Positions 1 through 17,964 of a stretch of 37,173 bases of DNA are shown here, in pieces (within the stretch, counting starts at the first letter, position 1; each line of letters opens with the position of its first letter). The stretch is from Actinomycetes bacterium (GTDB lineage Bacteria > Actinomycetota > Thermoleophilia > BMS3ABIN01). The notes beneath the pieces are model-generated. The model did no database searches, had not been told where the DNA came from, and worked only from the letters and a program-made list of their open reading frames with translations. The DNA lies in contig JAJZQT010000005.1 of the NCBI GenBank assembly GCA_021803005.1, forward strand, positions 10,359 through 47,531, read 5' to 3'. The position numbers were made by a program, and so were the translations under genes.

Positions 1-201
1 AAGGTCGGCAAGGCCAAGGAGAAGAAGGGCGCGGTTCAGTTCCTGCGCGAGGTCAGGGTGGAGATGGGCAAGGTCACCTGGCCTTCTCGCGAAGAGCTGA
101 TCCAGTCGACGATCGTGGTCCTGATCGCGGTCGCCATTTCCGGAGTTTTCATCGCCATCCTGGACGCAATCTTCTCCAGGCTTGTGGGCCTGGTCAGCTA
201 A
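1..201 (+). CDS. secE: Preprotein translocase subunit SecE (5' truncated by window edge)
   Basis: Frame 1 reads ...FLREVRVEMGKVTWPSREELIQSTIVVLIAVAISGVFIAILD...LVS-TAA(199-201): SecE ExxKVxWP motif plus one TM helix, directly upstream of nusG. Not in the ORF track. Confidence 0.95.
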   Translation, partial: KVGKAKEKKGAVQFLREVRVEMGKVTWPSREELIQSTIVVLIAVAISGVFIAILDAIFSRLVGLVS

Positions 202-222
202 CGGTTAAGGGAGCCGGGATCA

Positions 223-747
223 ATGCCATTTAACTGGTACGTCATCAATACTTATTCGGGTCATGAGAACAAGGTCCGCCTCAACCTGCTGCAACGGATC
301 AAATCCATGAGCCAGGAGCAGAACGTCAAGGAGATAGTGGTCCCCACCGAGCAGGTGGTCGAGACCAAGAACGGCCAGAAAGTACAGACCGAGAAACGGG
401 TCTTCCCGGGTTATGTGCTGGTGAACATGCTCATGACCGATGACTCCTGGTCGCTGGTGAAGAACACTCCTGGCGTCACCGGCTTCGTCGGCTCGGCCAA
501 CAAGCCGATCCCGCTGAGCGCCCAGGAAGTGGACCGTATTCTTCATACCTCCACCGTCGAGAAGCCCAAGGCGGTGGCGATGTTCAGCGTCGGCGAGACC
601 GTCAGGGTCATGTCCGGCCCGCTCTCGGACTTCAACGGCGAGATTGCCGAGATCAGCGAGGACCAGAGCAAGCTCAAGGTTCTGGTCAACATCTTTGGCC
701 GCGAGACGCCGGTTGAGCTCAGCTTCGACCAGGTAAAGAAAGTCTAG
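223..747 (+). CDS. nusG: Transcription termination/antitermination factor NusG
   Basis: WYVINTYSGHENKV, FPGYVLV, TPGVTGFVG and C-terminal KOW with IFGRETPVEL; secE-nusG-rplK synteny. Confidence 0.98.
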   Translation: MPFNWYVINTYSGHENKVRLNLLQRIKSMSQEQNVKEIVVPTEQVVETKNGQKVQTEKRVFPGYVLVNMLMTDDSWSLVKNTPGVTGFVGSANKPIPLSAQEVDRILHTSTVEKPKAVAMFSVGETVRVMSGPLSDFNGEIAEISEDQSKLKVLVNIFGRETPVELSFDQVKKV

Positions 748-763
748 CGAAGGATATCCGGCC

Positions 764-796
764 CGGCCCGCGAGGCTTGCGGTGCGGGCCGTTTTT
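764..796 (+). terminator. Intrinsic terminator-like hairpin between nusG and rplK
   Basis: cggcccgc (764-771) pairs with gcgggccg (784-791), followed by ttttt (792-796); enclosed by an outer pairing gaaggata (749-756)/tatccttc (801-808). Confidence 0.55.
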
Positions 797-838
797 GCTG
801 TATCCTTCTTGATTGCGCCGTAAACGGACAGGAAGATA

Positions 839-1261
839 ATGGCTAAAAAAGTAATGACACTCATAAAGTTGCAGATCCCCGCCGGGCAGGCGAACCCCGC
901 CCCGCCGGTCGGCCCCGCTTTGGGCCAGCACGGCGTCAACATCATGGACTTCTGCAAGGCTTTCAACGCCAAGACCCAGCAGGAAGGCAACACGATCATT
1001 CCGGTGGAGATCACCGTCTTCGAGGACCGCTCCTTCACTTTTATCACCAAGACCCCGCCGGCAGCGGTACTTTTGAAGCAGGCCGCCGGCATCGAGAAGG
1101 GCTCAGGCGAGCCCCATCGCGAGAAGGTGGCGACAGTGCCGAGCTCCAAGGTGCGCGAGATCGCCGAGCTGAAGATGAAAGATCTTAATGCCAACGACGT
1201 CGAGGCGGCCATGAAGATCATCGCCGGCACCGCCCGCAGCATGGGAATCGTGGTGGAATAA
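839..1261 (+). CDS. rplK: 50S ribosomal protein L11
   Basis: [42 protein letters not shown]; TAATG overlap with rplA. Confidence 0.99.
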
Positions 1262-1968
1262 TGACAACCAAGACCAGCAAGAGGATGAATGAGGCGCGCT
1301 CGCAGGTGGAGCGCGAGAAGCTTTATACGCCGCTCGAGGCGGTCAAGCTCATGAAGAGCCTGCCGGCGGCCAAGTTCGATGAAACCGTCGAGGTCCATTT
1401 TCGCCTGGGCGTCGATCCGCGCAAGGCCGATCAGATGATCCGGGGCACGACCATGCTCCCGCACGGCACCGGCAAGGAGATGCGCGTGGCTGTTTTCGCC
1501 GAGGGCGACAAGGAAAAGGAAGCCCGTGACGCCGGCGCCGATGTAGTCGGCGGCGAGGATCTGGCCAAGAAGATTGAAGGCGGCTGGTTCGAGTTCGACG
1601 TCTGTATCGCCACGCCGGACATGATGAAAGTCGTCGGCCGTCTGGGCCGGGCGCTGGGCCCGCGGGGCCTGATGCCGAACCCCAAGGCTGGAACCGTGAC
1701 CTTCGACATCGGCAAGGCTGTCGAGGACGCCAAGGCCGGGAAGGTGGAATACCGCACCGACCGCACCGCCATCGTGCATCTGGCGATCGGCAAGGTCTCA
1801 TTTTCCGAGGCCGATCTGCTCGACAACTATGGCACCGTCATCGACGAGCTGATCAAAGCCAAGCCCGCGTCCGCCAAGGGCCGCTATATCAAGAGCATCA
1901 CACTGGCAACAACCATGGGTCCGGGACTGCACGTCGATTCGTCGATCGTCCGCGACTTCATGGACTAG
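1261..1968 (+). CDS. rplA: 50S ribosomal protein L1
   Basis: [46 protein letters not shown]. Confidence 0.99.
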
Positions 1969-2062
1969 GGACGTTCGTTTCCTATGTTTCCTAACTTTGG
2001 GAAACACGGGAAACTGCGGACCTGGCCGGTAAGTTAGGAAACATAGGAAACGAACGTCCCTA
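1966..2062. repeat. 97-bp element with perfect 32-bp terminal inverted repeats (MITE/REP-like)
   Basis: tagggacgttcgtttcctatgtttcctaactt (1966-1997) is the exact reverse complement of 2031-2062, with a 33-nt spacer; begins at the rplA stop codon and has TA at both outer ends. Confidence 0.85.
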
Positions 2063-2065
2063 TAG

Positions 2066-2136
2066 CACCAGAGAAAGCCGGTGCCCATTCCCGCCGGGGA
2101 TGAGCCCAAGGGGCCGAAGGCCCGCCCGCCGAGGTG
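2066..2136 (+). promoter_or_regulatory. Ribosomal protein L10 leader (L10(L12)n-binding autoregulatory RNA)
   Basis: Lies upstream of rplJ; cacc (2066-2069)/ggtg (2133-2136) closing stem, with AGAaaGCCGGT...GAAGG...CCCGCCGAGG resembling the L10-leader consensus as I recall it; no covariance search run. Confidence 0.75.
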
Positions 2137-2178
2137 AGATGAAGGAACGATGCGCTGCAAGGCGGCATCGGCTCCGGC

Positions 2179-2210
2179 AGTCTGCCTCGCGGGGCAGACT
2201 TTTTTATTTT
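2179..2210 (+). terminator. Attenuator-type intrinsic terminator in the rplJ leader
   Basis: agtctgcc (2179-2186)/ggcagact (2193-2200) stem followed by tttttatttt, just before the rplJ SD (ggaggt); same arrangement as the Bacillus rplJL attenuator. Confidence 0.75.
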
Positions 2211-2225
2211 GCCGGGAGGTGAGAG

Positions 2226-2747
2226 ATGAAAAAGGAAGATAAGGCGGCCAAGGTGGCTGAACTGGCCGACAGGGCCAAAGCCAGCACCGCCATGCTCGTC
2301 GCCGACTACCGCGGCATTTCCGTCGCTGAAGCCCGTACACTGAGGACCGAGATGCGTGAGGTTGGTGCCCACTTCGAGGTTACCAAGAACACGCTGATGA
2401 TGCGCGCCGTCGACGAGGCCGGCGCCGCCGAACTCAAGGAGTATCTGGTGGGGCCCAGCGCCATCGCTTTTTGCGACGGGGATGCGGTCGAGCCCGCCAA
2501 GGTGCTCGTCAAGTACGCCAAGGAGCTTAAGCCGCTGGAGATCAAGGGCGGCCTGCTAGAGGGCAAGCTCATCGACGTCGCCAAGATCAAGTTTCTGGCA
2601 TCGCTGCCGCCGCGCGAAGTTCTGCTGTCACAGCTGCTGGGCGCCATGCAGGGTCCGATTCGCGGACTGGCGACAGTCTGTGCCGGTCCCATCCGCGGGC
2701 TGGTGACGGTGCTGCAGAGGGTTCAGGAGCAGAAGGAAGCTGCTTAG
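2226..2747 (+). CDS. rplJ: 50S ribosomal protein L10
   Basis: DYRGISV, VTKNTL, GPSAIAF, LASLPPREVLLSQLLG; precedes rplL. Confidence 0.98.
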   Translation: MKKEDKAAKVAELADRAKASTAMLVADYRGISVAEARTLRTEMREVGAHFEVTKNTLMMRAVDEAGAAELKEYLVGPSAIAFCDGDAVEPAKVLVKYAKELKPLEIKGGLLEGKLIDVAKIKFLASLPPREVLLSQLLGAMQGPIRGLATVCAGPIRGLVTVLQRVQEQKEAA

Positions 2748-2778
2748 CCGCTGAAGAAGCTGCTTAGCCGCTAAAGAA
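2736..2778 (+). repeat. 20-bp tandem duplication spanning the rplJ stop codon
   Basis: gaagctgcttagccgctgaa (2736-2755) then gaagctgcttagccgctaaa (2756-2775); one mismatch. Confidence 0.85.
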
Positions 2779-2821
2779 ACGGCCCGCGCGTCTCATTCAA
2801 ATAGTAAATTCAGGAGGAAAC

Positions 2822-3199
2822 ATGGCAGTTGATTCACTCATAGAAGAAATCAAGAAGCTCAGCGTCACCGAGCTGGCCGAGCTGGTCCACGCTCTGGAGG
2901 ATGAGTTCGGTGTCAGCGCCGCCGCTCCCGTAGCCATGGCCGCAGCGCCTGCCGCCGGTGGTGGCGAAGCCGCCGCCGAAGAGGAGCAGACCGAGTTCGA
3001 CGTCGTGCTCGCCGCGGTCGGCGACAAGAAGATCCAGGTCATCAAGGTCGTGCGCGCCGTCACCGGCCTGGGTCTCAAGGAAGCCAAGGAGGTCGTTGAC
3101 AGCGCTCCCAAGCCTGTCAAGGAGAAGGTCTCCAAGGAAGAGGCCGAGGACATCAAGGGCAAGCTGGAAGAAGTCGGCGCCACCATCGAAGTAAAATAG
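2822..3199 (+). CDS. rplL: 50S ribosomal protein L7/L12
   Basis: [45 protein letters not shown]. Confidence 0.99.
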
Positions 3200-3221
3200 C
3201 AAACGCGTTCTCGAAGTATGT

Positions 3222-3258
3222 GGGGCGGCGCTGCCGAAGGCAGCGCCGCCCCTGCTTT
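3222..3258 (+). terminator. GC-rich hairpin downstream of rplL (probable terminator or REP-like stem)
   Basis: Perfect 14-bp stem ggggcggcgctgcc (3222-3235)/ggcagcgccgcccc (3239-3252), GAA loop, only a weak T tract (tgcttt). Confidence 0.55.
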
Positions 3259-3265
3259 GCACCCC

Positions 3266-3308
3266 GAAAGATTGCTGTCGATCGCCATCATGAAAGATTG
3301 CTGTCGAT
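3266..3308 (+). repeat. Perfect 17-bp direct repeat with 26-bp period upstream of the inserted cassette
   Basis: gaaagattgctgtcgat at 3266-3282 and 3292-3308. Confidence 0.85.
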
Positions 3309-3399
3309 TTACATCGAAAATTTCTGTTGCCCGCACGCGCAAATTTTCTCAGGAAATTGAATGCATGCCACTTCTTTGTTTTTCCGGAATAATGGGTAA

Positions 3400-3481
3400 T
3401 AAAGGGATTGAGCAGCAAAACGATGTATAATTTTTATTGTATGTTAAATCCTGAATGTTTCAATATTAGACGTTTGGTCTT
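3400..3481 (+). promoter_or_regulatory. AT-rich putative promoter region of the five-gene cassette
   Basis: Markedly AT-rich tract with a consensus TATAAT at 3426-3431; no well-spaced -35 box found. Confidence 0.45.
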
Positions 3482-4720
3482 ATGGCCATAAACGCCGTCG
3501 ACAATCGCGATGAGGACGAAGATTTCCCGGTCCCCGAGGGGAGAACTCCGCTTGCCAAGGTAAGGAACTATCTGGCTGACCGCCGCTCGGCCCTGGCCGA
3601 TCAGCGCACGGCCATGTCGCGTGGCCGCACCGGTCTGGCTTTCTTCCGTACGGGCATCGCGCTGGTGGCGATTGCCGTCACCCTGCTGAGGACATTCGGC
3701 TTCGGAATTTTCCTTCCCTTTGATGTGGTGCTCATTGCTGGTGGAGCCGCCGCCATCTATGACGGCCTGCGCTGGTACCTGCCCGTGCGCCGGGACGCCG
3801 CCAGGGATCTCGCCTATATCCCGCCGGCCAGGCCGCCAGGCATCTCGGTGCTGCAGACCGAAGACAAAGGCGAGACCGGCGTACCTGAATTTTTTCGCAG
3901 CACCGCTGTCGATGAAGCCGAGGCCATGCGCGGCGACTGGAGCAGCTTAAGCCCGGTCGAGCGGCGGCGATTCCTCGCCAACGACCGCACCGACCTGGCG
4001 GAGGAGCGCGCACACCTTTCCTCTCTGCGGACAACCATGGCCAAATCGCGTATGGGCCTCGCCTTCACGCGCTCAGGTGTGGCGTTCGCCGGCCTCGGCA
4101 TCGCCCTGGTCAGGAAATTTCCGGCCACAGGCTGGAACTATTTCAATTACTTTCTCATCGCCGTCGGCACATTGATGGCGCTCGAGGGTTTTTACTGGTA
4201 CCTGCCCGGCTACCGGGCCGGCCTCGAGGGCTTGGGCCGGTTCAAGCGCTCGCTGCAGGAACCGGGCATATGGGGCGAGCTGTTTCCGCCGCTCAGGACT
4301 TCCCGCAAGAGCTATCCTCCCCTGAAAGCATCGCAGGCGCCGGGCATCTGGGGGACCACCGGCCTGGCGCTGGAGCGCACGGTGCTGGCAGACCGCCGCA
4401 ACCTGATGTCGCGGCTGCGGACCGTCATGGCCCATTCGCGCACCGGCCTGGCCTTCGTGCGCACCGGCATGAGCATCTCGGCGGTGGGCGCGGGCCTGAT
4501 CGCCTTTCTCACCGTGAGCCCTGCCTGGGGAATATTTGACCTGGCGCTGATTCTGACGGGCGGTGTTCTTATAATCGACGGCCTGCGCTGGTACCGGTAT
4601 TCCGAACGAACGCGCCGGCAGTTCCCTTACTGTTACGGCGACCTCGAGATCAACATTCCGGATTACGGCATTCCCCGCAGCAGGTGGGGCAAGGTGATGT
4701 TCAGCCATGACGACCTCTAA
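3482..4720 (+). CDS. Membrane protein with three DUF202/YidH-like repeats, each an Arg-heptad helix plus a TM hairpin
   Basis: Three internal repeats ending R(T/M)GLAFxR(T/S)G-TM-loop-TM-(D/E)GxxWY; Arg at 21/28/35/42/49/56, 162/169/176/183/190/197 and 299/306/313/320/327; resembles the DUF202 motif LAxERTxLAxxRT. Family call is from motif recognition only. Confidence 0.75.
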   Translation: MAINAVDNRDEDEDFPVPEGRTPLAKVRNYLADRRSALADQRTAMSRGRTGLAFFRTGIALVAIAVTLLRTFGFGIFLPFDVVLIAGGAAAIYDGLRWYLPVRRDAARDLAYIPPARPPGISVLQTEDKGETGVPEFFRSTAVDEAEAMRGDWSSLSPVERRRFLANDRTDLAEERAHLSSLRTTMAKSRMGLAFTRSGVAFAGLGIALVRKFPATGWNYFNYFLIAVGTLMALEGFYWYLPGYRAGLEGLGRFKRSLQEPGIWGELFPPLRTSRKSYPPLKASQAPGIWGTTGLALERTVLADRRNLMSRLRTVMAHSRTGLAFVRTGMSISAVGAGLIAFLTVSPAWGIFDLALILTGGVLIIDGLRWYRYSERTRRQFPYCYGDLEINIPDYGIPRSRWGKVMFSHDDL

Positions 4721-5774
4721 CCCGGCGGGCAAACACGAGGCCATGGCGGACGCGAGCGCGATCGAGTACGACGAACGGCTGCCGGTGCCGCCGCAGCTGC
4801 TCGATGGCCTCGACCCCGAAGTGCTCTCACGCGAACTGATATTTCCCGTTTTCCTGGAAGCGGGGACCGTCGTGCTGGCGGCCGCCGATCCCGGCCGGGT
4901 CCCGTCCGCGGAGATCGGCAGGATCACGCATGGGGCTCCCTATCAGCTGCGCCGGGCGGCGCCCGAGGACATCCGCTGGTTCATCGAGGATTTTATGAGC
5001 GACCGGCCCGGCAGGATTATCGGCACCGAGCGCACCGGCCTGGCATTCTGGCGCAACACCATGGCTGCCTGGCGGACCCGGATGGCGTGTTACCGCAACG
5101 ATCTGGCCAAGGCGAGGGTGTCGCTGAGTATCCTGCGCTGGGGCCTCGGGTTCATCACCGTCGCCAGCGCCTCGGCCGTGCTGGAGCTGAATCTGTCTTT
5201 GACCACATTAATGTATTGGAGTCTGTTAATCACGGGCGGGGCAGTCACCGTGCTCGGCCTCTTCCATTACCTGCGCATCCGCCGCTCGATGATGAAGGCT
5301 CCCGGGCCGCAGACGCTGGTGGAGGTGACCACCGCCACGGTGAGCTTCCTTGAGAACTACGAGCTGCAATGCACGTTCAAACCCAGGGTCAAGGGGACGA
5401 TGCTATCGCGCCTGGCTGACTTCCTGCCCAACTATTGCAGCGTGCTGAGGCCCGAGCCCGCCAGCCGCGAGCGCACCCATCTGGCCCGCGAGCGTGACAT
5501 GCTGGCGGCGCACCGGACCCTGGCAGCCTGTTACCGGACCCTTTACGCCCGCGGCCGGACCGGCCTGGCGTTTATCCGGACGGGAATCGTCTTCCTGGGA
5601 ATCGGAGCCGGACTGGTGCAGTACTTCCAGGTCAATCCGTTGGCGCTCTGGGGCTTGCTGCTGTTCGCGGCGGGCGTGCTCATGATCACCGACGGTCTGC
5701 TCTGGTATGTGCCTGCCAGGAAGGAAGAGCCGGACCTGCGGCGCCTCATGACCACCCCTGCGCGCCAGGCATGA
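4707..5774 (+). CDS. Membrane protein with an N-terminal T2SSE_N/MshEN-like subdomain and two DUF202/YidH-like Arg-heptad repeats
   Basis: Residues about 20-97 (L..L....IFPV...GTVVLAAADP...EI......RAAPEDI..FI) resemble the PilB/GspE N-terminal subdomain; Arg at 109/116/123/130/137/144 and 256/263/270/277/284/291, each followed by two TM helices; overlaps the previous gene by 14 nt. Confidence 0.7.
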   Translation: MTTSNPAGKHEAMADASAIEYDERLPVPPQLLDGLDPEVLSRELIFPVFLEAGTVVLAAADPGRVPSAEIGRITHGAPYQLRRAAPEDIRWFIEDFMSDRPGRIIGTERTGLAFWRNTMAAWRTRMACYRNDLAKARVSLSILRWGLGFITVASASAVLELNLSLTTLMYWSLLITGGAVTVLGLFHYLRIRRSMMKAPGPQTLVEVTTATVSFLENYELQCTFKPRVKGTMLSRLADFLPNYCSVLRPEPASRERTHLARERDMLAAHRTLAACYRTLYARGRTGLAFIRTGIVFLGIGAGLVQYFQVNPLALWGLLLFAAGVLMITDGLLWYVPARKEEPDLRRLMTTPARQA

Positions 5775-5788
5775 GTGCCAGGCATGAG
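5764..5788 (+). repeat. 12-bp direct repeat (13-bp period) spanning the stop codon of the second membrane gene
   Basis: gccaggcatgag at 5764-5775 and 5777-5788. Confidence 0.7.
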
Positions 5789-5817
5789 GGCAATGCTGAC
5801 ATGAAACCACACCCGGC

Positions 5818-7227
5818 ATGAGAATCGAACGCAAGATAATCCTCTCCAACACCATTTACCTGGTGCTCATCCTGATCATCGGGGGCTTCGCGGTCCAGTC
5901 GCTGAACAGCGTCAGTGGCAAGCAGCGCTTCCTGGAGATTGCCGACGACCTCAACACCTCCTTCCTGACCATGAGGCTGGCCGAGAAAAACTATTTTCTT
6001 TTCAACGATAACCAGGCACTTACGGATATGCAGAGCAACATAGCCCAGACCCGCGACATCATGGACTCGGTCCGGGGCGACATCATCCCCGTCATCGGCG
6101 AGCAGAGCTACAACGATCTTAGGAACGGGCTCAATGATTACGCCGCCGCCATCGACGAGGCTGCCGCCAGCCACGCCCGCGACCAGCAGACGGCGGCCGA
6201 CATCCGTGGGAAAGGGCGAACCCTCGAGAACACCTCCAACCACATCATCCAGCTCGAGCGCTCCCGCATCAGCGACATCATTACCCGCTCAAAATGGCTG
6301 CTGTTCTCCTCGTTCTTTGCCGTGCTGGTGGCGGCTCTGATCGCCAGCCGCTCGGTTACGAAGAAGATCCTCGGCCCGATCAAGCAGATTGAGCGCCTGG
6401 CGCGGTCCATCTCCGCCGGTAACTTCAAGAAGATCGAGACGGCCAGGCCCAAGGACGAGTTCGGGCCGGTCATCGACGCCATCAACTCGATGTCGGAGGA
6501 GCTCGAGGAACGTGAGGAAGAGCTGATCCAGTCCAAGAAGCTCGCTTCTATCGGCGTGCTCGTGGCCGGCGTCGCCCACGAACTCAACAACCCCGTCAAC
6601 AACATCTCCATGATCGCGCAGACTTACGACGAAATGTATGTAAAGCTGAGCGAGGAGCAACGCATCGAATTCATGCGCAAGATCGACCAGGAATCGGAGC
6701 GGATCAAGGGGATCGTCAACAACCTGCTTGATTTTGCACGCCCCAAGGAACCCAAGCCGCGGCGGATCGATGTCAACGCGCTGCTGACCAAGGCGCTGGT
6801 GCTGGTGCAGAACACGCTCAATGTTTCCAGCATCGAGACCAATCTCGACCTGGACGATGGTTTGCCGGATATCTTTATCGATGACAACCAGGTGCAGCAG
6901 GTGTTCGTCAACCTCTTTCTGAACGCCGCCCAGGCGATGGCGCCCGGGGGACGGCTGTTCGTAAGCACCAGGCTACAGCCTGACGGGAAAATGGTGGACA
7001 TCATTATCCGGGACACCGGGAAAGGCATTCAGCCAGAGTATCTTCCCCATATCTTCGATCCGTTTTTCAGCACCAAGGAGGCGGGCGGCACCGGCCTGGG
7101 GCTCTCGGTGAGTTACAGCATCATCAAAAATCACGGGGGGAACATCCGGGCGGAGAGCCGCCCCGGAATCGGCACCACTTTCACAATCCAGATGCCAGTC
7201 AACCACATCGAGAAAGGAAGCACATGA
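5818..7227 (+). CDS. Membrane sensor histidine kinase (TM, extracytoplasmic helical sensor, TM, HAMP, HisKA, HATPase; NtrB-like class)
   Basis: Two TM segments, HAMP (GPIKQIERLARSISAGNF...DEFGPVIDAINSM), H-box GVAHELNNP (His254), N-box QVFVNLFLNA, G1 DTGKGI, F-box IFDPFFSTK, G2 GTGLGL. Confidence 0.95.
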   Translation: MRIERKIILSNTIYLVLILIIGGFAVQSLNSVSGKQRFLEIADDLNTSFLTMRLAEKNYFLFNDNQALTDMQSNIAQTRDIMDSVRGDIIPVIGEQSYNDLRNGLNDYAAAIDEAAASHARDQQTAADIRGKGRTLENTSNHIIQLERSRISDIITRSKWLLFSSFFAVLVAALIASRSVTKKILGPIKQIERLARSISAGNFKKIETARPKDEFGPVIDAINSMSEELEEREEELIQSKKLASIGVLVAGVAHELNNPVNNISMIAQTYDEMYVKLSEEQRIEFMRKIDQESERIKGIVNNLLDFARPKEPKPRRIDVNALLTKALVLVQNTLNVSSIETNLDLDDGLPDIFIDDNQVQQVFVNLFLNAAQAMAPGGRLFVSTRLQPDGKMVDIIIRDTGKGIQPEYLPHIFDPFFSTKEAGGTGLGLSVSYSIIKNHGGNIRAESRPGIGTTFTIQMPVNHIEKGST

Positions 7228-7592
7228 GCGCAAGGATAATGGTCATCGATGACGAGAAAATCGTCGGCGACATGGCGAAGATATCGCTCGAGGAAGAGGG
7301 CTATGAGGTTGAGACTTTTCTCAATGCCGACCCGGCCCTCAAGCGCCTGCATGAGACCGTCTTCGACGTTGTGGTCACGGACCTGAAGATGAAAGGCATC
7401 GACGGGCTCGAGGTGCTGCGGACAGTGAAACAGACGCACCCGGACACGAAGGTGATCATGATCACCGCTTTTGCCGACCTCGACGTCGCCATCGAGGCGA
7501 TCAAGGGCGATGTCTTCGATTTCTTCCCCAAGCCGGTGAGGATCAAGGACCTCAAGGAATCCATCAGCAAAGCGCTCGCGGAAGAATCGTAA
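7224..7592 (+). CDS. Single-domain response regulator (receiver only)
   Basis: VIDDE, phospho-acceptor D53 (VTDLKM), T81, K103-P; 122 aa with no output domain; ATGA overlap with the kinase. Confidence 0.95.
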   Translation: MSARIMVIDDEKIVGDMAKISLEEEGYEVETFLNADPALKRLHETVFDVVVTDLKMKGIDGLEVLRTVKQTHPDTKVIMITAFADLDVAIEAIKGDVFDFFPKPVRIKDLKESISKALAEES

Positions 7593-10130
7593 GTGACGCT
7601 GAGGCAGAAAATGTTATCCCTGGTGGGAAGGCATACCGGCCGGCGCGAGTCAGCATCGGTCGATGTCCGCTCGGCTTTTGCCGCCTACAAGAAGATCATG
7701 GACGACAACAGCCGCGCCCTGGAGATCATCACCGACATGGGCGAGACCATGAGCGGCGGCTACCTGTTCGACATCGTCTACCTGCGAAAAGCCTACTCCG
7801 ACCTGGCCGTCAGCATGCGCGTCTGCCTGAAAGATTTCAATCAGCTGACCGCGGGGCGCTACCCTGGGCTCGCAAGCGCCTTCGAAGAGATCGATGAGCG
7901 CATCGATGGCCTGGTTTCAGGCACCGTCCGGCCGCTGGAGCGGCTGACCGTTCGCCTCGGGGATATAACGCCGCCCATGGCGCGGGAAGTGGGGGGCAAA
8001 AGTTTTCATCTGGCAGAGATCAAAAACAGCCTCGGGCTCGCGGTCCCGGACGGGTTTGCGCTGACGATCTTCGCCTTCGAGGAATTCATCCGCCACAACC
8101 GGCTTGGAGAAGCCATAGCCTCGCTGGAGAGCGATGGCGATGAACCCGGGCGCCGCCGCGGGTTGCGCGAGCAGATCCTGGCCGGGGGCTTCCCGCCTTC
8201 ACTGGAAAAAGATCTTGCCGGCTCGCTGGAGTGGCTGCGGGGCCGTTGCGGTGATTGCCGCCTGGCGGTGCGAAGCAGCGCCGAGGAGGAAGACGGGATC
8301 TTTTCCTTTGCCGGGCAGTTCGAGACCGTGCTGAACGTTCCGGCCGAAGCCGGGGCTGTTGAGGATGCCTACCGGCGCGTGGTGGCCAGCCTCTTTTCCG
8401 AAGAGGCCATGGCCTACCAGCGGCGGCTGGGTTACCATCCCGGGAGCCTGAGGATGGCGGTGGGCTGTGTCGCCATGGTCGATGCCGCCGTCAGTGGCGT
8501 TGCCTACACCGCCGATCCGCTCGGCGGCGACCGCGGCGTCATGGTCATCAACTCTTCCTGGGGGTTGGGCAAATCCGTCGTCGAGGGGGCTGTGGACGCG
8601 GACCGGTTCGTTGTGGAAAAGACCCCTCCCTACCAGGTGACCGAGCGGGTACTGGGCAGAAAGGAAACCATGACGGCGCCGATGACCGAAGCCGGGGTGC
8701 AGGAGGTCGAAACCGCCGGCGACAGGCGCCATGCTTCTTCCCTGGCGCCCAAGGAACTCGAGGAGATTGTCCGCCAGGCACTGGCCATCGAGGCATACTA
8801 CAAGCGGCCGCAGGACATTGAGTGGGCCGTCGATGGGAACGGACGCGTTGTGATATTGCAGGCACGGCCGCTGAGGATGAAGGAAACAGCGCCCGCGGAA
8901 AACAAAGCTGCGGCCGCCGGGCGCCCGGTGCTCATGCGCAACAAGGGCAGCGTGGTGCAGCCGGGCGCCGTGGGTGGCAGGGTCTTTTTTGCCAGCTCGC
9001 CGGAGGCGCTCGATGAATTCCCCAGGGACGCTATTCTGGTGGCCCGTCATGATTCACCCCAGTATGTGCGGGTCATGCCCTACGCCTCGGCTATCATCAC
9101 CGATGCCGGCAACACCACCAGTCACATGGCCTCGATCAGCCGGGAGTTCCGGGTGCCCACCGTGGTCAACACCGGCGTCGCCACCAGCGTGCTGAAGCCC
9201 GGCGCCGAGATTACCCTTCAGGCCGGCGAAGACGGCGGCATGACCGTGTACGAGGGAATCGCCCGCGAGATCATCGACGAGCAGCACGACACTTTCCTCA
9301 AACTCGAAGAGCTGTACGAGTTCCGGCGCCGCAAATACGTGATGACATATATCACGCCTCTGAACCTGGTCAATCCCTTCACCGACGACTTCGCGCCTGA
9401 GAACTGCCGCACGATTCACGATATCCTGAGATTCATCCATGAAAAATCGATGCGGGAACTGATCGAGGCCTCGCGGCATACGGAACGCGGCTCCTCGCTG
9501 AAGCGCCTGGACATCCCCTTCATGGACACCATCCACGTAATCGATATCGGGGCCGGGCTCGCCGCCGGCGCCGGCGGCGTCATCACTGTCGAGCAGGTGG
9601 TCTCGGTGCCTTTCAAGGCGATCCTGGAAGGAATGTCATTCCCCGGAGCCTGGCGTAAGGGAGGGGTTCCCATCAGCCTCTCGGATTTCTTCACGGCCAG
9701 CATGCGCACCGGTTCCCTGCTTGAAGACATCGATATGAATCTGGCGGTGATTTCCCATTTCTACATGAACCTGGCTGTCCGCTTCGGTTATCACTACACC
9801 GTGGTCGACTGTTTCGCCAGCCAGAGGGCGGCCAGCAACCACATATATTTTCGCTTCCTGGGTGGCGCCGCCGACCTGTCCAAGCGGCTGCGGCGCATCG
9901 AGATGCTCGAGATAATCCTCGATCATCTGGGGTTTGCCTCCCGGGCCAAAGGCGATCTCATCACCGCCACGATCACGAATATCAGTCAGGAGGAGGCTGT
10001 TCGCATCCTCGACCAGTCGGGCCGGCTGATGGCATTCACCCGCCAGCTGGACGCCATGCTTACCAGCGACAGCGCCGTCAAGGAATATGCCCGGAAATTC
10101 ATCGAAGGCGAGTACGAGCTTTTCGGGTAA
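7593..10130 (+). CDS. PEP synthase/PPDK-family ATP-grasp plus phosphohistidine swivel protein with an uncharacterised C-terminal domain
   Basis: VGGK, VPDGF, LAVRSSA..ED...SFAGQFET, SGVAYT.DP, WGLG.SVVEG, PQDIEWA, ILQARP (nucleotide-binding domain); GNTTSHMASISREFRVP with His511; the C-terminal ~270 aa lack PEP/pyruvate TIM-barrel motifs. GTG start abuts the receiver stop; alternative ATG at 7611. Confidence 0.85.
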   Translation: MTLRQKMLSLVGRHTGRRESASVDVRSAFAAYKKIMDDNSRALEIITDMGETMSGGYLFDIVYLRKAYSDLAVSMRVCLKDFNQLTAGRYPGLASAFEEIDERIDGLVSGTVRPLERLTVRLGDITPPMAREVGGKSFHLAEIKNSLGLAVPDGFALTIFAFEEFIRHNRLGEAIASLESDGDEPGRRRGLREQILAGGFPPSLEKDLAGSLEWLRGRCGDCRLAVRSSAEEEDGIFSFAGQFETVLNVPAEAGAVEDAYRRVVASLFSEEAMAYQRRLGYHPGSLRMAVGCVAMVDAAVSGVAYTADPLGGDRGVMVINSSWGLGKSVVEGAVDADRFVVEKTPPYQVTERVLGRKETMTAPMTEAGVQEVETAGDRRHASSLAPKELEEIVRQALAIEAYYKRPQDIEWAVDGNGRVVILQARPLRMKETAPAENKAAAAGRPVLMRNKGSVVQPGAVGGRVFFASSPEALDEFPRDAILVARHDSPQYVRVMPYASAIITDAGNTTSHMASISREFRVPTVVNTGVATSVLKPGAEITLQAGEDGGMTVYEGIAREIIDEQHDTFLKLEELYEFRRRKYVMTYITPLNLVNPFTDDFAPENCRTIHDILRFIHEKSMRELIEASRHTERGSSLKRLDIPFMDTIHVIDIGAGLAAGAGGVITVEQVVSVPFKAILEGMSFPGAWRKGGVPISLSDFFTASMRTGSLLEDIDMNLAVISHFYMNLAVRFGYHYTVVDCFASQRAASNHIYFRFLGGAADLSKRLRRIEMLEIILDHLGFASRAKGDLITATITNISQEEAVRILDQSGRLMAFTRQLDAMLTSDSAVKEYARKFIEGEYELFG

Positions 10131-10234
10131 CTCGGGGGTTTCCCCGATATCAGGGATGCGCCTTCTTCGGCTCGGCGTCCCAGGTTTCAAACCCGGGCCT
10201 CCGGGTAACATTTTCGGGTACGCTCGAGTATTTC

Positions 10235-10255
10235 AACAAAGGAAACCAACGTCCC
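10235..10255 (+). repeat. Solo copy of the end of the 1966-2062 inverted-repeat element
   Basis: aacaaaggaaaccaacgtccc matches aacataggaaacgaacgtccc (2040-2060) at 19 of 21 positions. Confidence 0.75.
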
Positions 10256-10260
10256 CGGCC

Positions 10261-10289
10261 TTGCTTCCGAAAACCAGTTATGTTATATT
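10261..10289 (+). promoter_or_regulatory. Sigma-70/SigA promoter for rpoB
   Basis: TTGCTT (10261-10266), 17-bp spacer, TATATT (10284-10289), with extended -10 TG at 10281-10282. Confidence 0.75.
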
Positions 10290-10346
10290 TCCTTGTTCGT
10301 GCCTCAGCACGGTCCTATTACCCTGCAATAATCCCATCCGCGAGGG

Positions 10347-13300
10347 GTGAGCCTTTTGGAGCAACTGTCTGACTACGCTGTAAGTCCCCGCCAACGGAGA
10401 TCCTTCTCCAAACTCGAAAAGATTTTAGAGGTCCCCAACCTCATCGATATTCAGAAAAGTTCCTACGAGTGGTTCCTTGATGAAGGTGTGCGCGAGACCA
10501 TCGCCGACATCTCACCGATTGAGGACTATACCGGCACGCTGGCCGTCGAGTTCGGCGAGCATCATTTCGAGCCGCCGACCAGCAGCATCGAGGAGTGCCG
10601 CGACAAGGACGGCAACTACTCGGCTCCGCTGTTCATGACCGTGCGGTTTATCAACAAGGAGACCGGCGAGATCCGTGAGCAGTCAGTGTTCATGGGCGAC
10701 TTCCCCATGATGACCGAGTGGGGAACCTTCATCATCAACGGCACCGAGCGTGTCGTCGTCACCCAGCTGGTCCGTTCCCCGGGCGCCTACGTCATGGAGC
10801 CCAAGGACCCGGCCAAGCAGATGTTCATCGCCAACCTCATGCCATCCCGCGGGTCCTGGCTGGAGCTCGAGATCGACAAGAAGGGCGTCGTCAACGTCCG
10901 CATCGACCGCAAGCGCAAGCTGCCGGTGACGGTGCTGCTGCGCGCGCTGGGTTACGGCAACGATGACGACATCCGCAAGCTTTTCAGCCTGGAGAAAAAG
11001 ACCAGGAAAAAGGAAGGCAGGGAAGAGACGGAATGGATCTGGGGCAAGGGCAAGAATTCCATCTATATAGACAAGACCCTGGACAAGGACACGACTGAAA
11101 GCCAGGAAGCGGCGATGGTCGAGCTCTTCAAGAAGCAGCGCCCGGGCGAGCCGCCCAGCCTGGAGAGCTCCAAGTCGCTGATCAAGGCGCTGTTCTTCGA
11201 TCCCAAGCGCTACGACCTCACCAAAGTCGGCCGCTACAAGCTCAACACGCGCCTGAACTTGAACGTCAAGCCGGACGTGCGCACGCTGACCAACGACGAT
11301 ATCCTCGAGCTGATCCGCGCTCTGATCATCCTGCCGGAGAAGCTGGAGATCCCCGAGGACACGGTCGATTTCGCGGCCGAGGCCAAGGGAATGCCCCGCG
11401 AGGAGATCACCCACGACCTCGACGAGTACGAGCATTTCGGCAACCGCCGGCTGCGCACCGTCGGCGAGCTGGTGCAGGAAGCTTTCCGCATCGGCCTCTA
11501 CCGCATGGAGCGCGTGGTCAAGGAGCGCATGACTACCGAGGACGTGGACGCTATCACGCCTCAGCATATTATCAATATACGGCCCGTGGTTGCGGCGCTC
11601 AAGGAGTTTTTTGGCTCCTCACAGCTGTCGCAGTTCCTGGACCAGACCAATACCCTGGCCGCCCTGACGCATCGCCGCCGCTTAAGCGCCCTGGGCGCCG
11701 GCGGCCTGACGCGTGAGCGGGCCCCGATCGAAGTCCGCGACGTGCATCCGACCCACTATGGCCGCATGTGCCCGATCGAGACTCCTGAAGGCCCGAACAT
11801 CGGCCTCATCGGCTCACTCTCGTCCTTTGCCACGGTAAATGAGTTCGGTTTCATCCAGACTCCTTACCGCAAGGTGGAGAAGGGCAAGGTAACCACCGAG
11901 ATCGTTTACCTGGACGCCAGCGAGGAAGACAAGTACGTCATCGCCCAGGCCAACGCCGAGTTCAATCCCAAGACCGGCAAGTTCCCGGACAACATGAACG
12001 TGCTGGCCCGTACCCGCGACGGCGAGGTAGTTACTGTCAAGCCCAAGGAAGTCGACTTCATGGACGTCTCGCCGCAGCAGATCGTTTCGGTGGCGACGGC
12101 ACTGGTTCCCTTCCTCGAGCATAACGACGCCAACCGCGCCCTCATGGGCTCGAACATGCAGCGCCAGGCGGTACCGCTACTGGTGTCACAAGCGCCGCTG
12201 ATCGGCACCGGCATCGAGTTCCGCGCCGCCATCGACACCGGCGACGTCATCCTGGCCAAGAACTCCGGTAAGATCAAGGAAGTCGACGCCGAGCACATCA
12301 TCATCGAGACCAGCAAGGGCGAGGATGTTTACGTGCTCAAAAAGTTCACCCGTTCCAACCAGGGTACGCTGATGCACCAGAAGCCGCTGCTGGTCGAGGG
12401 TGACCGCGTCAAGAAGGGCGCGGTGCTGGCCGACGGCGCCTCCACCGACATGGGGGAGATGGCGCTGGGCAAGAACCTGCTGGTCGCCTTCATGAGCTGG
12501 GAAGGTTACAACTTCGAGGATGCCATCATCCTCAGCGAGCGCCTGGTCAAGGACGACGTGCTCTCTTCCATCCATATCGAGGAATACGAGGTCGAGGCCC
12601 GCTCCACCAAGCTGGGCGACGAGGAGATCACCCGTGATATCCCCAACCGCAGCGAAGAGTCGCTGGCCGACCTCGATGAAGACGGCATCATCCGTATCGG
12701 CGCCGAGGTTAACGCCGGCGATCTGCTGGTGGGCAAGGTCACGCCCAAGGGCGAGACCGAGCTGACCGCCGAGGAAAAGCTGATCCGCGCCATCTTCAAG
12801 GAGAAGGCCCGCGAAGTGCGCGACACTTCGCTCAAGGTCCCCCACGGCGAAGGCGGCCGCATCATCGACGTCAAGATATTCTCCCGCGACAACGGCGACG
12901 ACCTCGCCCCGGGAGTCAACAAGCTGGTCCGTGTCTACGTGGCCAAGAAGCGCAAGATCGCCGAGGGCGACAAGCTGGCTGGCCGCCACGGCAACAAGGG
13001 CGTCATCTCCAAGATCGTCCCCGAGGAGGACATGCCCTTCCTCGAGGACGGCACGCCCGTGGACATCATCCTCAATCCCCTGGGCGTACCTTCCCGGATG
13101 AACATCGGGCAGATCCTGGAGACGCACCTGGGCTGGGCCGCTTCGCGCGGCTGGGATGACGGCAACGGTTTCCGGGCGCCGGTTCACGTGGCGACGCCGG
13201 TATTCGACGGCGCCAGCCTCGGCGAGATCGAGGAAGCGCTGATCAAGTGCTACGATCACGACCCGGAGAAGAAGATCACTTATTCCTACAACAACGATGA

Positions 13301-13955
13301 GCCCAACCCGGCCGCCGGCAAGGTGAAGCTGTTCAACGGCCTCACCGGCGAGCCTTACGGCGACAAGATCACCGTGGGCTACATGTATATCCTCAAACTC
13401 CTGCACCTGGTGGACGACAAGATCCACGCGCGTTCCACCGGACCCTACTCGCTGGTGACGCAGCAGCCACTGGGCGGCAAGGCCCAGTTCGGCGGGCAGC
13501 GATTCGGCGAGATGGAGGTCTGGGCGCTGGAGGCTTACGGCGCCGCCCATACGCTGCAGGAGATGCTGACGATCAAGTCCGATGACACCATCGGCCGCGT
13601 CAAGGCCTACGAGGCGATCGTCAAGGGCGAGAACATCCCCGAGCCGAACATCCCCGAGTCGTTCAAGGTGCTGCTGAAGGAGATGCAGAGCCTGGGGCTC
13701 GACGTCGGCATCGAGACCGAGGCCGGCGAGAGCGTCGAGATGATCGAGGAAGACGACGAACTCCGCCGCGCCGCCGAGGAGCTTGGCATCGATCTGTCAC
13801 AGGGCCTGAAGAAGAAGGAAGGCCCGGGCGTGGAGGGAGAGGAAGCAGCCGAGCTGCTTGCGGCCGACCAGGAGCTCTCGGTGGAAGAGGGAGCCGAAGA
13901 GGAAGAGGAAGAGGAAGCGGAAACAGAAGCAGAGGCGGAGGTCGAGGTAGAATGA
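10347..13955 (+). CDS. rpoB: DNA-directed RNA polymerase subunit beta
   Basis: [80 protein letters not shown]; acidic C-terminal tail. True start may be TTG at 10356 (SD-like gagggg upstream). Confidence 0.99.
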
Positions 13956-14037
13956 GCCGCGCCATTGATAAAACGCCGTTTCATGATATAACGGCAGGAA
14001 ATATTCCCAGACAAAATTCCAGACTCCGGGAGGAACG

Positions 14038-17964
<3,927 letters not shown>

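Follow-up and report, generated by a model that had tools for sequence, protein, structure and literature searches.

Two overlapping genes in a stretch of DNA from an Actinomycetes bacterium (Thermoleophilia, BMS3ABIN01; NCBI GenBank assembly GCA_021803005.1, contig JAJZQT010000005.1, positions 10,359 to 47,531; 37,173 nucleotides, hereafter called the window) encode membrane proteins with regularly spaced Arg residues, and they raise the question of what such a pair builds in the membrane. An initial annotation, made from the sequence alone, had described three DUF202-like units in the first protein and two in the second, and had proposed that the pair forms a pseudo-pentameric channel for polyphosphate or another polyanion, related to the pore of the yeast VTC complex. 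Our analysis favors the reading that the pair is a variant of the DUF202/VTC-type pentameric pore and acts as a regulated anion conduit; we give this reading a probability of about 0.5. Both open reading frames (ORFs) were present as described, with a 14-nt overlap between the end of protein 1 and the start of protein 2, and contained the following features (TM1 and TM2, first and second transmembrane helices of a unit):

3482..4720, + strand: protein 1, three DUF202-type units and a conserved C-terminal tail (412 aa; ORF, PF02656 E 1.9e-12 in 3 stretches)
3542..3793, + strand: unit A1, with ladder R21–R56 (6 Arg), in-register R70, TM1, hairpin and TM2
3965..4216, + strand: unit A2, with ladder R162–R197 (6 Arg), in-register R211 and transmembrane hairpin
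4355..4606, + strand: unit A3, with ladder R299–R327 (5 Arg) and transmembrane hairpin
4613..4675, + strand: C-terminal tail of protein 1, aa 378–398, near-invariant residues in the alignment, modelled against the N-terminal domain of protein 2
4707..5774, + strand: protein 2, a GSPII/MshEN-type domain and two DUF202-type units (355 aa; ORF, Pfam)
4773..5006, + strand: GSPII/MshEN-type alpha/beta domain, cytoplasmic, aa 23–100 of protein 2 (PF05157)
5031..5285, + strand: unit B1, with ladder R109–R144 (6 Arg) and transmembrane hairpin
5472..5723, + strand: unit B2, with ladder R256–R291 (6 Arg) and transmembrane hairpin

The unit coordinates proposed earlier were all in frame, and the arrangement of 3 + 2 homologous units with Arg at every seventh residue was reproduced from the ORFs. 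The in-register Arg residues were 21, 28, 35, 42, 49 and 56 in A1, 162–197 in A2, 299–327 in A3, 109–144 in B1 and 256–291 in B2, giving 6 + 6 + 5 + 6 + 6 = 29 Arg at exact 7-residue spacing across the five units. Long Arg runs occurred at spacing 7 only; at spacings of 2–6 and 8–11 no run exceeded 3. Protein 1 has three runs of at least 5 and protein 2 has two, and a run of at least 6 was seen in 10 of 20,000 shuffles of protein 1 and in 7 of 20,000 shuffles of protein 2. Alignment of 45 units from nine genomes gave a heptad consensus of R at position a, T at b, L/M at d and A/S at e, with five Arg, L4, A5, G38, G68 and G75 as invariant columns. All five units of the window ended in G-x-x-(W/H)-Y followed by basic residues, and their 36-residue ladder segments, in which acidic residues were few, together carried a net charge of +29. 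The ladder register continued into the membrane part of TM1, which was rich in G/A/S/T at positions a and e, and a further in-register Arg was present at the outer end of TM1 in A1 and A2. That the Arg pattern reflects chance or low complexity, or that the ORFs are not genes, was rejected as having next to no probability, given the shuffles, hundreds of full-length relatives, the conservation of the Arg columns and the confident folds.

To our knowledge, DUF202 is a widespread bacterial membrane domain without an assigned function, and its only understood members are the eukaryotic VTC pore subunits. The similarity to DUF202 claimed in the initial annotation was confirmed for protein 1, which scored 47.9 bits against a PF02656 cut-off of 23.4 over 3 stretches; protein 2 scored 21.9 bits, slightly below that cut-off. 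The units of protein 2 nevertheless matched those of protein 1 (blastp E ~1e-16 to 1e-19; unit hidden Markov model E 6e-33 and 6e-39), and a precomputed PF02656 match was present in many relatives of protein 2. Among 8000 candidates scored, 947 relatives of protein 1 were found at E ≤ 1e-3; 716 relatives of protein 2 were found at the same threshold. NCBIfam held no family for either protein, and matches in the ESM Atlas were to DUF202 clusters only, with all structure matches below a TM-score of 0.3. Within A3, the Pfam DUF202 model sets in at the third Arg (aa 313), indicating that the ladder in the window exceeds the usual domain by two to three heptads and that typical single-unit members carry about three heptads.

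Two reports on the VTC complex (PMC9911596; bioRxiv 10.1101/2023.01.27.525886) describe a 3:1:1 pentamer whose subunits have three membrane helices each, in which the pore has a lining of five TM1 helices and carries two basic rings, formed by Vtc1 K24 and R31 and their equivalents in Vtc3 and Vtc4; an SPX-VTC-DUF202 (pfam02656) architecture is named in PMC12388464. We built a profile (A4) from the five window units and 62 short single-unit proteins picked from the 150 best matches of a whole-library profile search. When A4 was compared with the PDB, the top matches were four distinct Vtc1 sequences (two from 9umg, one each from 8i6v and 7ytj) with E values of 8e-4 to 1.6e-3, the next match having an E value of 0.16. 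The matches covered Vtc1 residues 27–88 and placed Vtc1 position 31 on the penultimate ladder Arg of each unit (R49, R190, R320, R137 and R284). The proposed sequence link to Vtc1 was thus borne out marginally by A4, narrower queries having missed VTC, and homology between the ring of the pair and the pentameric membrane domain of VTC is supported but marginal.

AlphaFold2 models were obtained for protein 1 (predicted local distance difference test, pLDDT, 79.5; predicted TM-score, pTM, 0.78) and for protein 2 (pLDDT 78.6). The modelled helices were 23–72/78–107, 158–212/219–259 and 287–343/347–380 in protein 1, the tail of which was of low confidence when the protein was modelled alone, and 105–158/164–197 and 252–307/313–338 in protein 2. 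Each modelled unit is an unbroken helix of 50–57 residues, comprising ladder and TM1, followed by a short turn and a return helix of 26–41 residues. With two membrane helices per unit, every ladder would lie on one and the same membrane side, in line with the common orientation proposed at the outset. This side is most likely the cytoplasm, given the basic ladders and basic residues following TM2, an N-terminal domain of cytoplasmic type and the receiver domain that lies behind the hairpin in a relative.

For the complex we used our own alignments, with 61 rows per chain. The 1:1 model scored 0.80 in three runs, and the best of 3 controls scored 0.00; 58 of 80 solved complexes reached the score mark, as did 2 of 110 mismatched pairs, counts that are rough here since own alignments were used. 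The runs had at least 71% of contacts in common, with a partner pLDDT of at least 66. In the model, A1 (21–72) packs on B2 (252–305) and A3 (295–342) on B1 (109–156), so that the units would close into a ring in the order A1-A2-A3-B1-B2. The interface also included tail residues 378, 383–385, 388, 390–391 and 393–398 and linker residues 279–299 of protein 1, and residues 19–30, 49–53 and 91–107 at the GSPII-type domain of protein 2. By heptad register, one helix face in the interfaces consisted of positions a, b, e and f and the opposite face of g, a, d and e, while c was almost unused. Positions a (Arg) and e (Ala/Ser/Gly) take part in both interfaces and should therefore point to the ring axis, so that the model agrees with the earlier proposal of a five-helix ring built by a 1:1 pair with Arg inward.

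The domain at aa 23–100 of protein 2 had been overlooked in the initial annotation. It is of the MshEN/GSPII type (PF05157, 35.9 bits against a cut-off of 23.1, E 7e-9), and its local Foldseek matches were XpsE-N (2d27), the GSPII-B domain of PilF, MshE (5htl) and PilB-N, with probabilities of 0.98–1.00 and root-mean-square deviations of 2.3–5.4 Å over 61–92 columns, but whole-chain E values of only 0.04–0.7; a PilB(N)-PilZ complex was among the fold matches. GSPII-type domains are protein-docking modules in secretion ATPases. Control by cyclic di-GMP through this domain was set aside because the 24-residue cyclic di-GMP-binding motif of MshE was absent in both its strict and its loose form from all 240 relatives and from both window proteins. 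The majority of protein 1 relatives are ~547 aa long and have an N-terminal domain of the GSPII/MshEN kind themselves, which the genus of the window has lost from protein 1.

Taken together, the preferred reading would work as follows. A 1:1 heterodimer would arrange five DUF202-type hairpins in the closed ring A1-A2-A3-B1-B2, with the ladder and TM1 helices forming an inner five-helix bundle and the TM2 return helices an outer ring, and the GSPII-type domain of protein 2 would clamp the tail of protein 1. Positions a and e would face the axis, producing five or six stacked Arg rings that helix geometry would space about 10 Å apart; these rings would line a cytoplasmic stalk and vestibule leading into a membrane pore lined by small residues. 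The tube would bind an anion and conduct it, the most likely cargo being an oxyanion of the phosphate type or of another kind, and possibly a polymer; control would come from the cytoplasmic side through a co-encoded histidine kinase and receiver, and in most lineages the tube would work jointly with an adjacent PpsA-like dikinase.

Compared with yeast VTC (three Vtc1 with Vtc3 and Vtc4; 7ytj, 8i6v, 9umg), the pair belongs to the same Pfam family, DUF202, and likewise has basic residues at intervals of 7 toward the cytoplasmic end of TM1, Vtc1 R31 falling on a ladder Arg. According to the complex model it would also have what is shown for VTC, a ring of five units with TM1 inside that is pseudo-symmetric and made of non-identical units. 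By contrast, VTC consists of five separate subunits, whereas the units of the pair are chained 3 + 2 on two polypeptides, and against the two basic rings of VTC the pair would have five or six Arg rings, set on a long extension of the helix into the cytoplasm. VTC is coupled to a TTM polymerase and an SPX domain, neither of which was present in the pair proteins or the scanned neighbors, no whole-genome TTM/CYTH search having been made; the pair is bacterial instead, with GSPII-type domains and a linked two-component system and dikinase, and, unlike the VTC setting, the carriers examined were without known polyphosphate kinases. In the CorA magnesium channel, each subunit of a pentamer contributes two membrane helices, and a long stalk helix on the cytoplasmic side runs into a pore-lining TM1, with basic residues past TM2. 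This resembles the architecture proposed for the pair, but CorA is a homopentameric cation channel with an acidic/polar lining. CorA was absent among the listed Foldseek matches of the protein 1 model and no sequence match was seen, the likeness being one of architecture.

We then asked how widely the 3 + 2 arrangement is conserved. Among 60 relatives of the genome of the window, protein 1 was found in 11 of the 23 genomes of its own family; outside the family this search gave one weak single-unit match only. Every complete locus among these relatives had 3 units, then 2. A scan of species-representative genomes gave 245 encoding stretches, from which 80 loci were kept, nine of them from genomes already in the set of relatives; most of the 80 bear the labels Nitrospirota, Thermodesulfovibrionales, Dissulfurispiraceae or Candidatus Sulfobium, and the family of the window is labelled as Thermoleophilia/Actinomycetes metagenome-assembled genomes or BMS3Abin01. 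The two genes were always side by side, as their predicted co-occurrence requires, and the order 3 then 2 was found in 69 of the 80 loci, or in 70 with L112, whose 2-unit gene sits in a masked stretch. Elsewhere the 2-unit gene was split (L069), the locus was cut by contig ends (L062, L099 and L106) or an additional single unit lay 6–7 kb off (L054 and L097). A search for fused forms gave none above 721 aa, though this counts as weak evidence. Ladder length was nearly constant for each position: A1 had 6 Arg in 75 units and 7 in 7; A2 had 6 in 68, 7 in 11 and 3 in 3; A3 had 5 in 81 and 4 in 1; B1 had 6 in 78; and B2 had 6 in 75, 5 in 2 and 4 in 1. The five unit classes were each monophyletic (support 0.81–1.0), with unit identities of 61–72% within and 28–42% between classes.

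DUF202 units also occur singly. YidH-like bacterial proteins have the same domain as the pair but one unit per chain, and one report (PMC10299036) describes YidH as a candidate from a D-alanine export screen that had no effect in a transport assay. The genome of the window itself encodes a separate single-unit DUF202 protein of 145 aa (59.3 bits; contig C11, 9712–9942; genome G000, locus L001). Another group of single-unit proteins (P0259, P0260, P0262, P0284 and P0265) has 12–20 consecutive heptad Arg residues and one hairpin. Like the window units, these proteins show an R-T-x-L-A heptad running into the hairpin and are full-length matches to the unit profile; they differ in having one unit per chain and are presumed to form homo-oligomers. 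Their stalks would reach up to ~200 Å if helical, and Asp/Glu are often found at positions c and g, where they could pair with Arg. P0265 carries a C-terminal receiver (REC) domain fused behind the long-ladder unit, 45% identical (E 9e-32) to the receiver encoded in the window, and the truncated P0263 also has a C-terminal receiver domain. P0301, a protein of 476 aa, has five short DUF202 units in one chain and is possibly a single-chain pseudo-pentamer. Two further candidates, P0306 and P0324, were rejected as relatives, being unrelated Glu/Arg coiled-coil repeat proteins.

Downstream of the pair, the window contains three further genes of a five-gene block:

5818..7227, + strand: sensor histidine kinase (HAMP, HisKA, HATPase_c; Pfam), a conserved downstream neighbor
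7224..7592, + strand: single-domain receiver protein, REC only (PF00072 E 2.5e-27)
7593..10130, + strand: PpsA-like dikinase with ATP-grasp (PPDK_N), swivel-His domain and a 301-aa C-terminal domain without a family (Pfam/NCBIfam)

These conserved neighbors had also escaped the initial annotation. In the 59 loci with at least 5.5 kb of downstream sequence, a histidine kinase was present downstream of the pair in 42, a single-domain receiver in 50 and a PpsA-like dikinase in 45, and the exact order histidine kinase, receiver, dikinase was found in 40. The last 301 aa of the dikinase (9225–10127) matched no Pfam or NCBIfam family. In the family of the window, dikinase orthologues were confined to carriers of the pair (genera g1, g7 and g8), and one genus (g4) had the pair but not the dikinase. 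Paralogues of the dikinase with 33–35% identity and ~850–890 aa were observed in relatives without the pair. Many Nitrospirota loci, but not the window, had Usp, TauE/SafE and Alph_Pro_TM genes together with an NtrC-type system upstream of the pair.

The tight linkage of the pair to histidine kinase and receiver genes is also what would be expected under the main rival explanation, namely that the pair is a non-conducting signalling or scaffold complex. Here, a membrane-anchored five-helix stalk with a polar Arg/Thr core or surface would dock the receiver or the dikinase, or bind anionic lipids, and serve as an input or output module of the two-component system. The natural DUF202-REC fusion in P0265 fits this explanation, as do the 12–20-heptad stalks of the single-unit relatives, which far exceed the needs of a pore and whose Asp/Glu at c and g could pair with Arg, and so do the PilB(N)-PilZ fold match and the docking role of GSPII-type domains. 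It is harder to reconcile with the ladders of the window, where acidic residues are scarce and the net charge is +29, with the small residues that stay in register through TM1, and with the sole relatives of known function, which form a pore in the VTC reports. We regard it as unlikely, though as the strongest of the rivals.

The remaining alternatives keep the conduit of the preferred reading and differ in its cargo. The initial annotation had proposed polyphosphate or another polyanion; as a polyphosphate channel, the Arg tube would thread polyphosphate through the cytoplasmic membrane as in VTC. Homology to the VTC pore domain, with a pore Arg of VTC aligned on the ladder, speaks for such a channel, and many more basic rings than the two of VTC, together with the net charge of +29, would suit a polyanion. 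However, polyphosphate kinases PPK1 (PF02503) and PPK2 (PF03976) were not found in the genome of the window (90% complete) or in five other carriers (G002, G009, G015, G018 and G016; 99, 98, 97, 97 and 86% complete); as controls, the searches gave positives in 7 and in 8 of 14 known genomes. Moreover, SPX, TTM/VTC and Ppx gave no match among the six scanned genes up- and downstream (Pfam, NCBIfam), no genome-wide search having been made for TTM/CYTH or Ppx. The claim of a polyphosphate cargo was thereby weakened, unless another enzyme makes polyphosphate, and we consider a polyphosphate channel improbable. Small oxyanions, of sulfur (sulfite, sulfate or thiosulfate) or of another kind, as cargo of a channel in sulfur-cycling Nitrospirota and neighbors would explain why many loci have an upstream TauE/SafE-family permease (PF01925, E 1.6e-50) with an Alph_Pro_TM partner and Usp, in clusters present in 34–48 of the 80 loci, and why carriers are labelled Thermodesulfovibrionales, Dissulfurispiraceae and Candidatus Sulfobium. 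Yet neither the window, which has rplL upstream, nor other loci of its family have this upstream block; the association may be due to shared regulation alone, and a six-ring ladder is more than a small ion needs, which makes this cargo quite improbable. The most far-reaching version, in which the whole five-gene module is a bacterial counterpart of VTC, would have the dikinase dock on the Arg tube and either synthesize a phosphorylated polymer or load it. This polymer could be polyphosphate that arises without PPK1 or PPK2, and the 3 + 2 pseudo-pentamer would thread it through the membrane, controlled by the histidine kinase and receiver; we see this as a long shot.

Several observations weigh against the preferred reading of a pentameric anion conduit itself. 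The Vtc1 match is marginal (E ~1e-3), and neither protein 1 by itself nor the 45-unit profile retrieved VTC from the sequences in the PDB, the matches being chance ones (E ~0.8). Foldseek with the protein 1 model produced no match at E ≤ 1e-3, and the matches listed (ranks to 49 of at least 500) included no VTC chain; ABC exporters ranked best among them, with TM-scores of 0.13–0.21. VTC has three membrane helices per subunit, whereas both of our models have two per unit. The complex prediction may have been informed by the solved VTC structure and would then show likeness and not binding, and the axis-facing Arg orientation was deduced from contact lists alone. A narrow tube with 25–30 unpaired Arg residues would be costly in energy unless counter-ions were bound. 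The pair is linked to no gene with a known function in transport or in making a cargo, and only 2 of the 6 relatives searched in the same genus carry it, indicating that it is dispensable. Finally, the expectation that homologous pairs always total five repeats held for the 70 loci with 3 units then 2, but not for three loci (L065, L066 and L083) with a 3+3+2 arrangement, in which two tandem 3-unit genes precede the 2-unit gene; L093 resembles these with a frameshift. Such tandem genes may encode alternative large subunits.

Overall, the initial annotation was partly borne out: its structural half, a VTC-related 3 + 2 pseudo-pentamer of DUF202 units with Arg toward the axis, finds good support in sequence, conservation and a model with controls, and its functional half, polyphosphate, does not. 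Repeat anatomy, membership of the family, conservation and linkage of the genes are shown, ring closure and Arg orientation come from the model, and conduction, cargo and regulation are inferred. On the preferred reading, the pair represents a natural case in which a presumed pentamer has been hard-wired as 3 + 2 tandem units, so that subunit order and stoichiometry are fixed and a bacterial DUF202 assembly becomes directly testable. The extended Arg ladder, which reaches up to 20 heptads in single-unit relatives, would be an unusual design for an anion or polyanion path, and the linked two-component system and uncharacterised dikinase provide handles on cargo and regulation. Among the titles and openings of abstracts listed by full-text searches we found no report of multi-unit DUF202 proteins or of a bacterial homologue of the VTC pore.

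The five-gene block occupies 3482–10130 of the window, between secE-nusG-rplK-rplA-rplJ-rplL (1–3199) and rpoB and rpoC (10347–17964), which lie 3′ of it. A promoter and terminator scan of 3100–10400 gave no signal above shuffles. A 13-bp GC-rich hairpin was observed directly 3′ of the rplL stop codon (feature region 3222–3308), followed by two copies of a 17-nt direct repeat (~3267–3283 and ~3292–3308), past which an AT-rich stretch reaches the start of protein 1; the hairpin and repeats may constitute a terminator or attenuator plus an operator for the inserted block. The placement of the block between rplL and rpoB was seen in the genus of the window only, different neighbors flanking the pair elsewhere.

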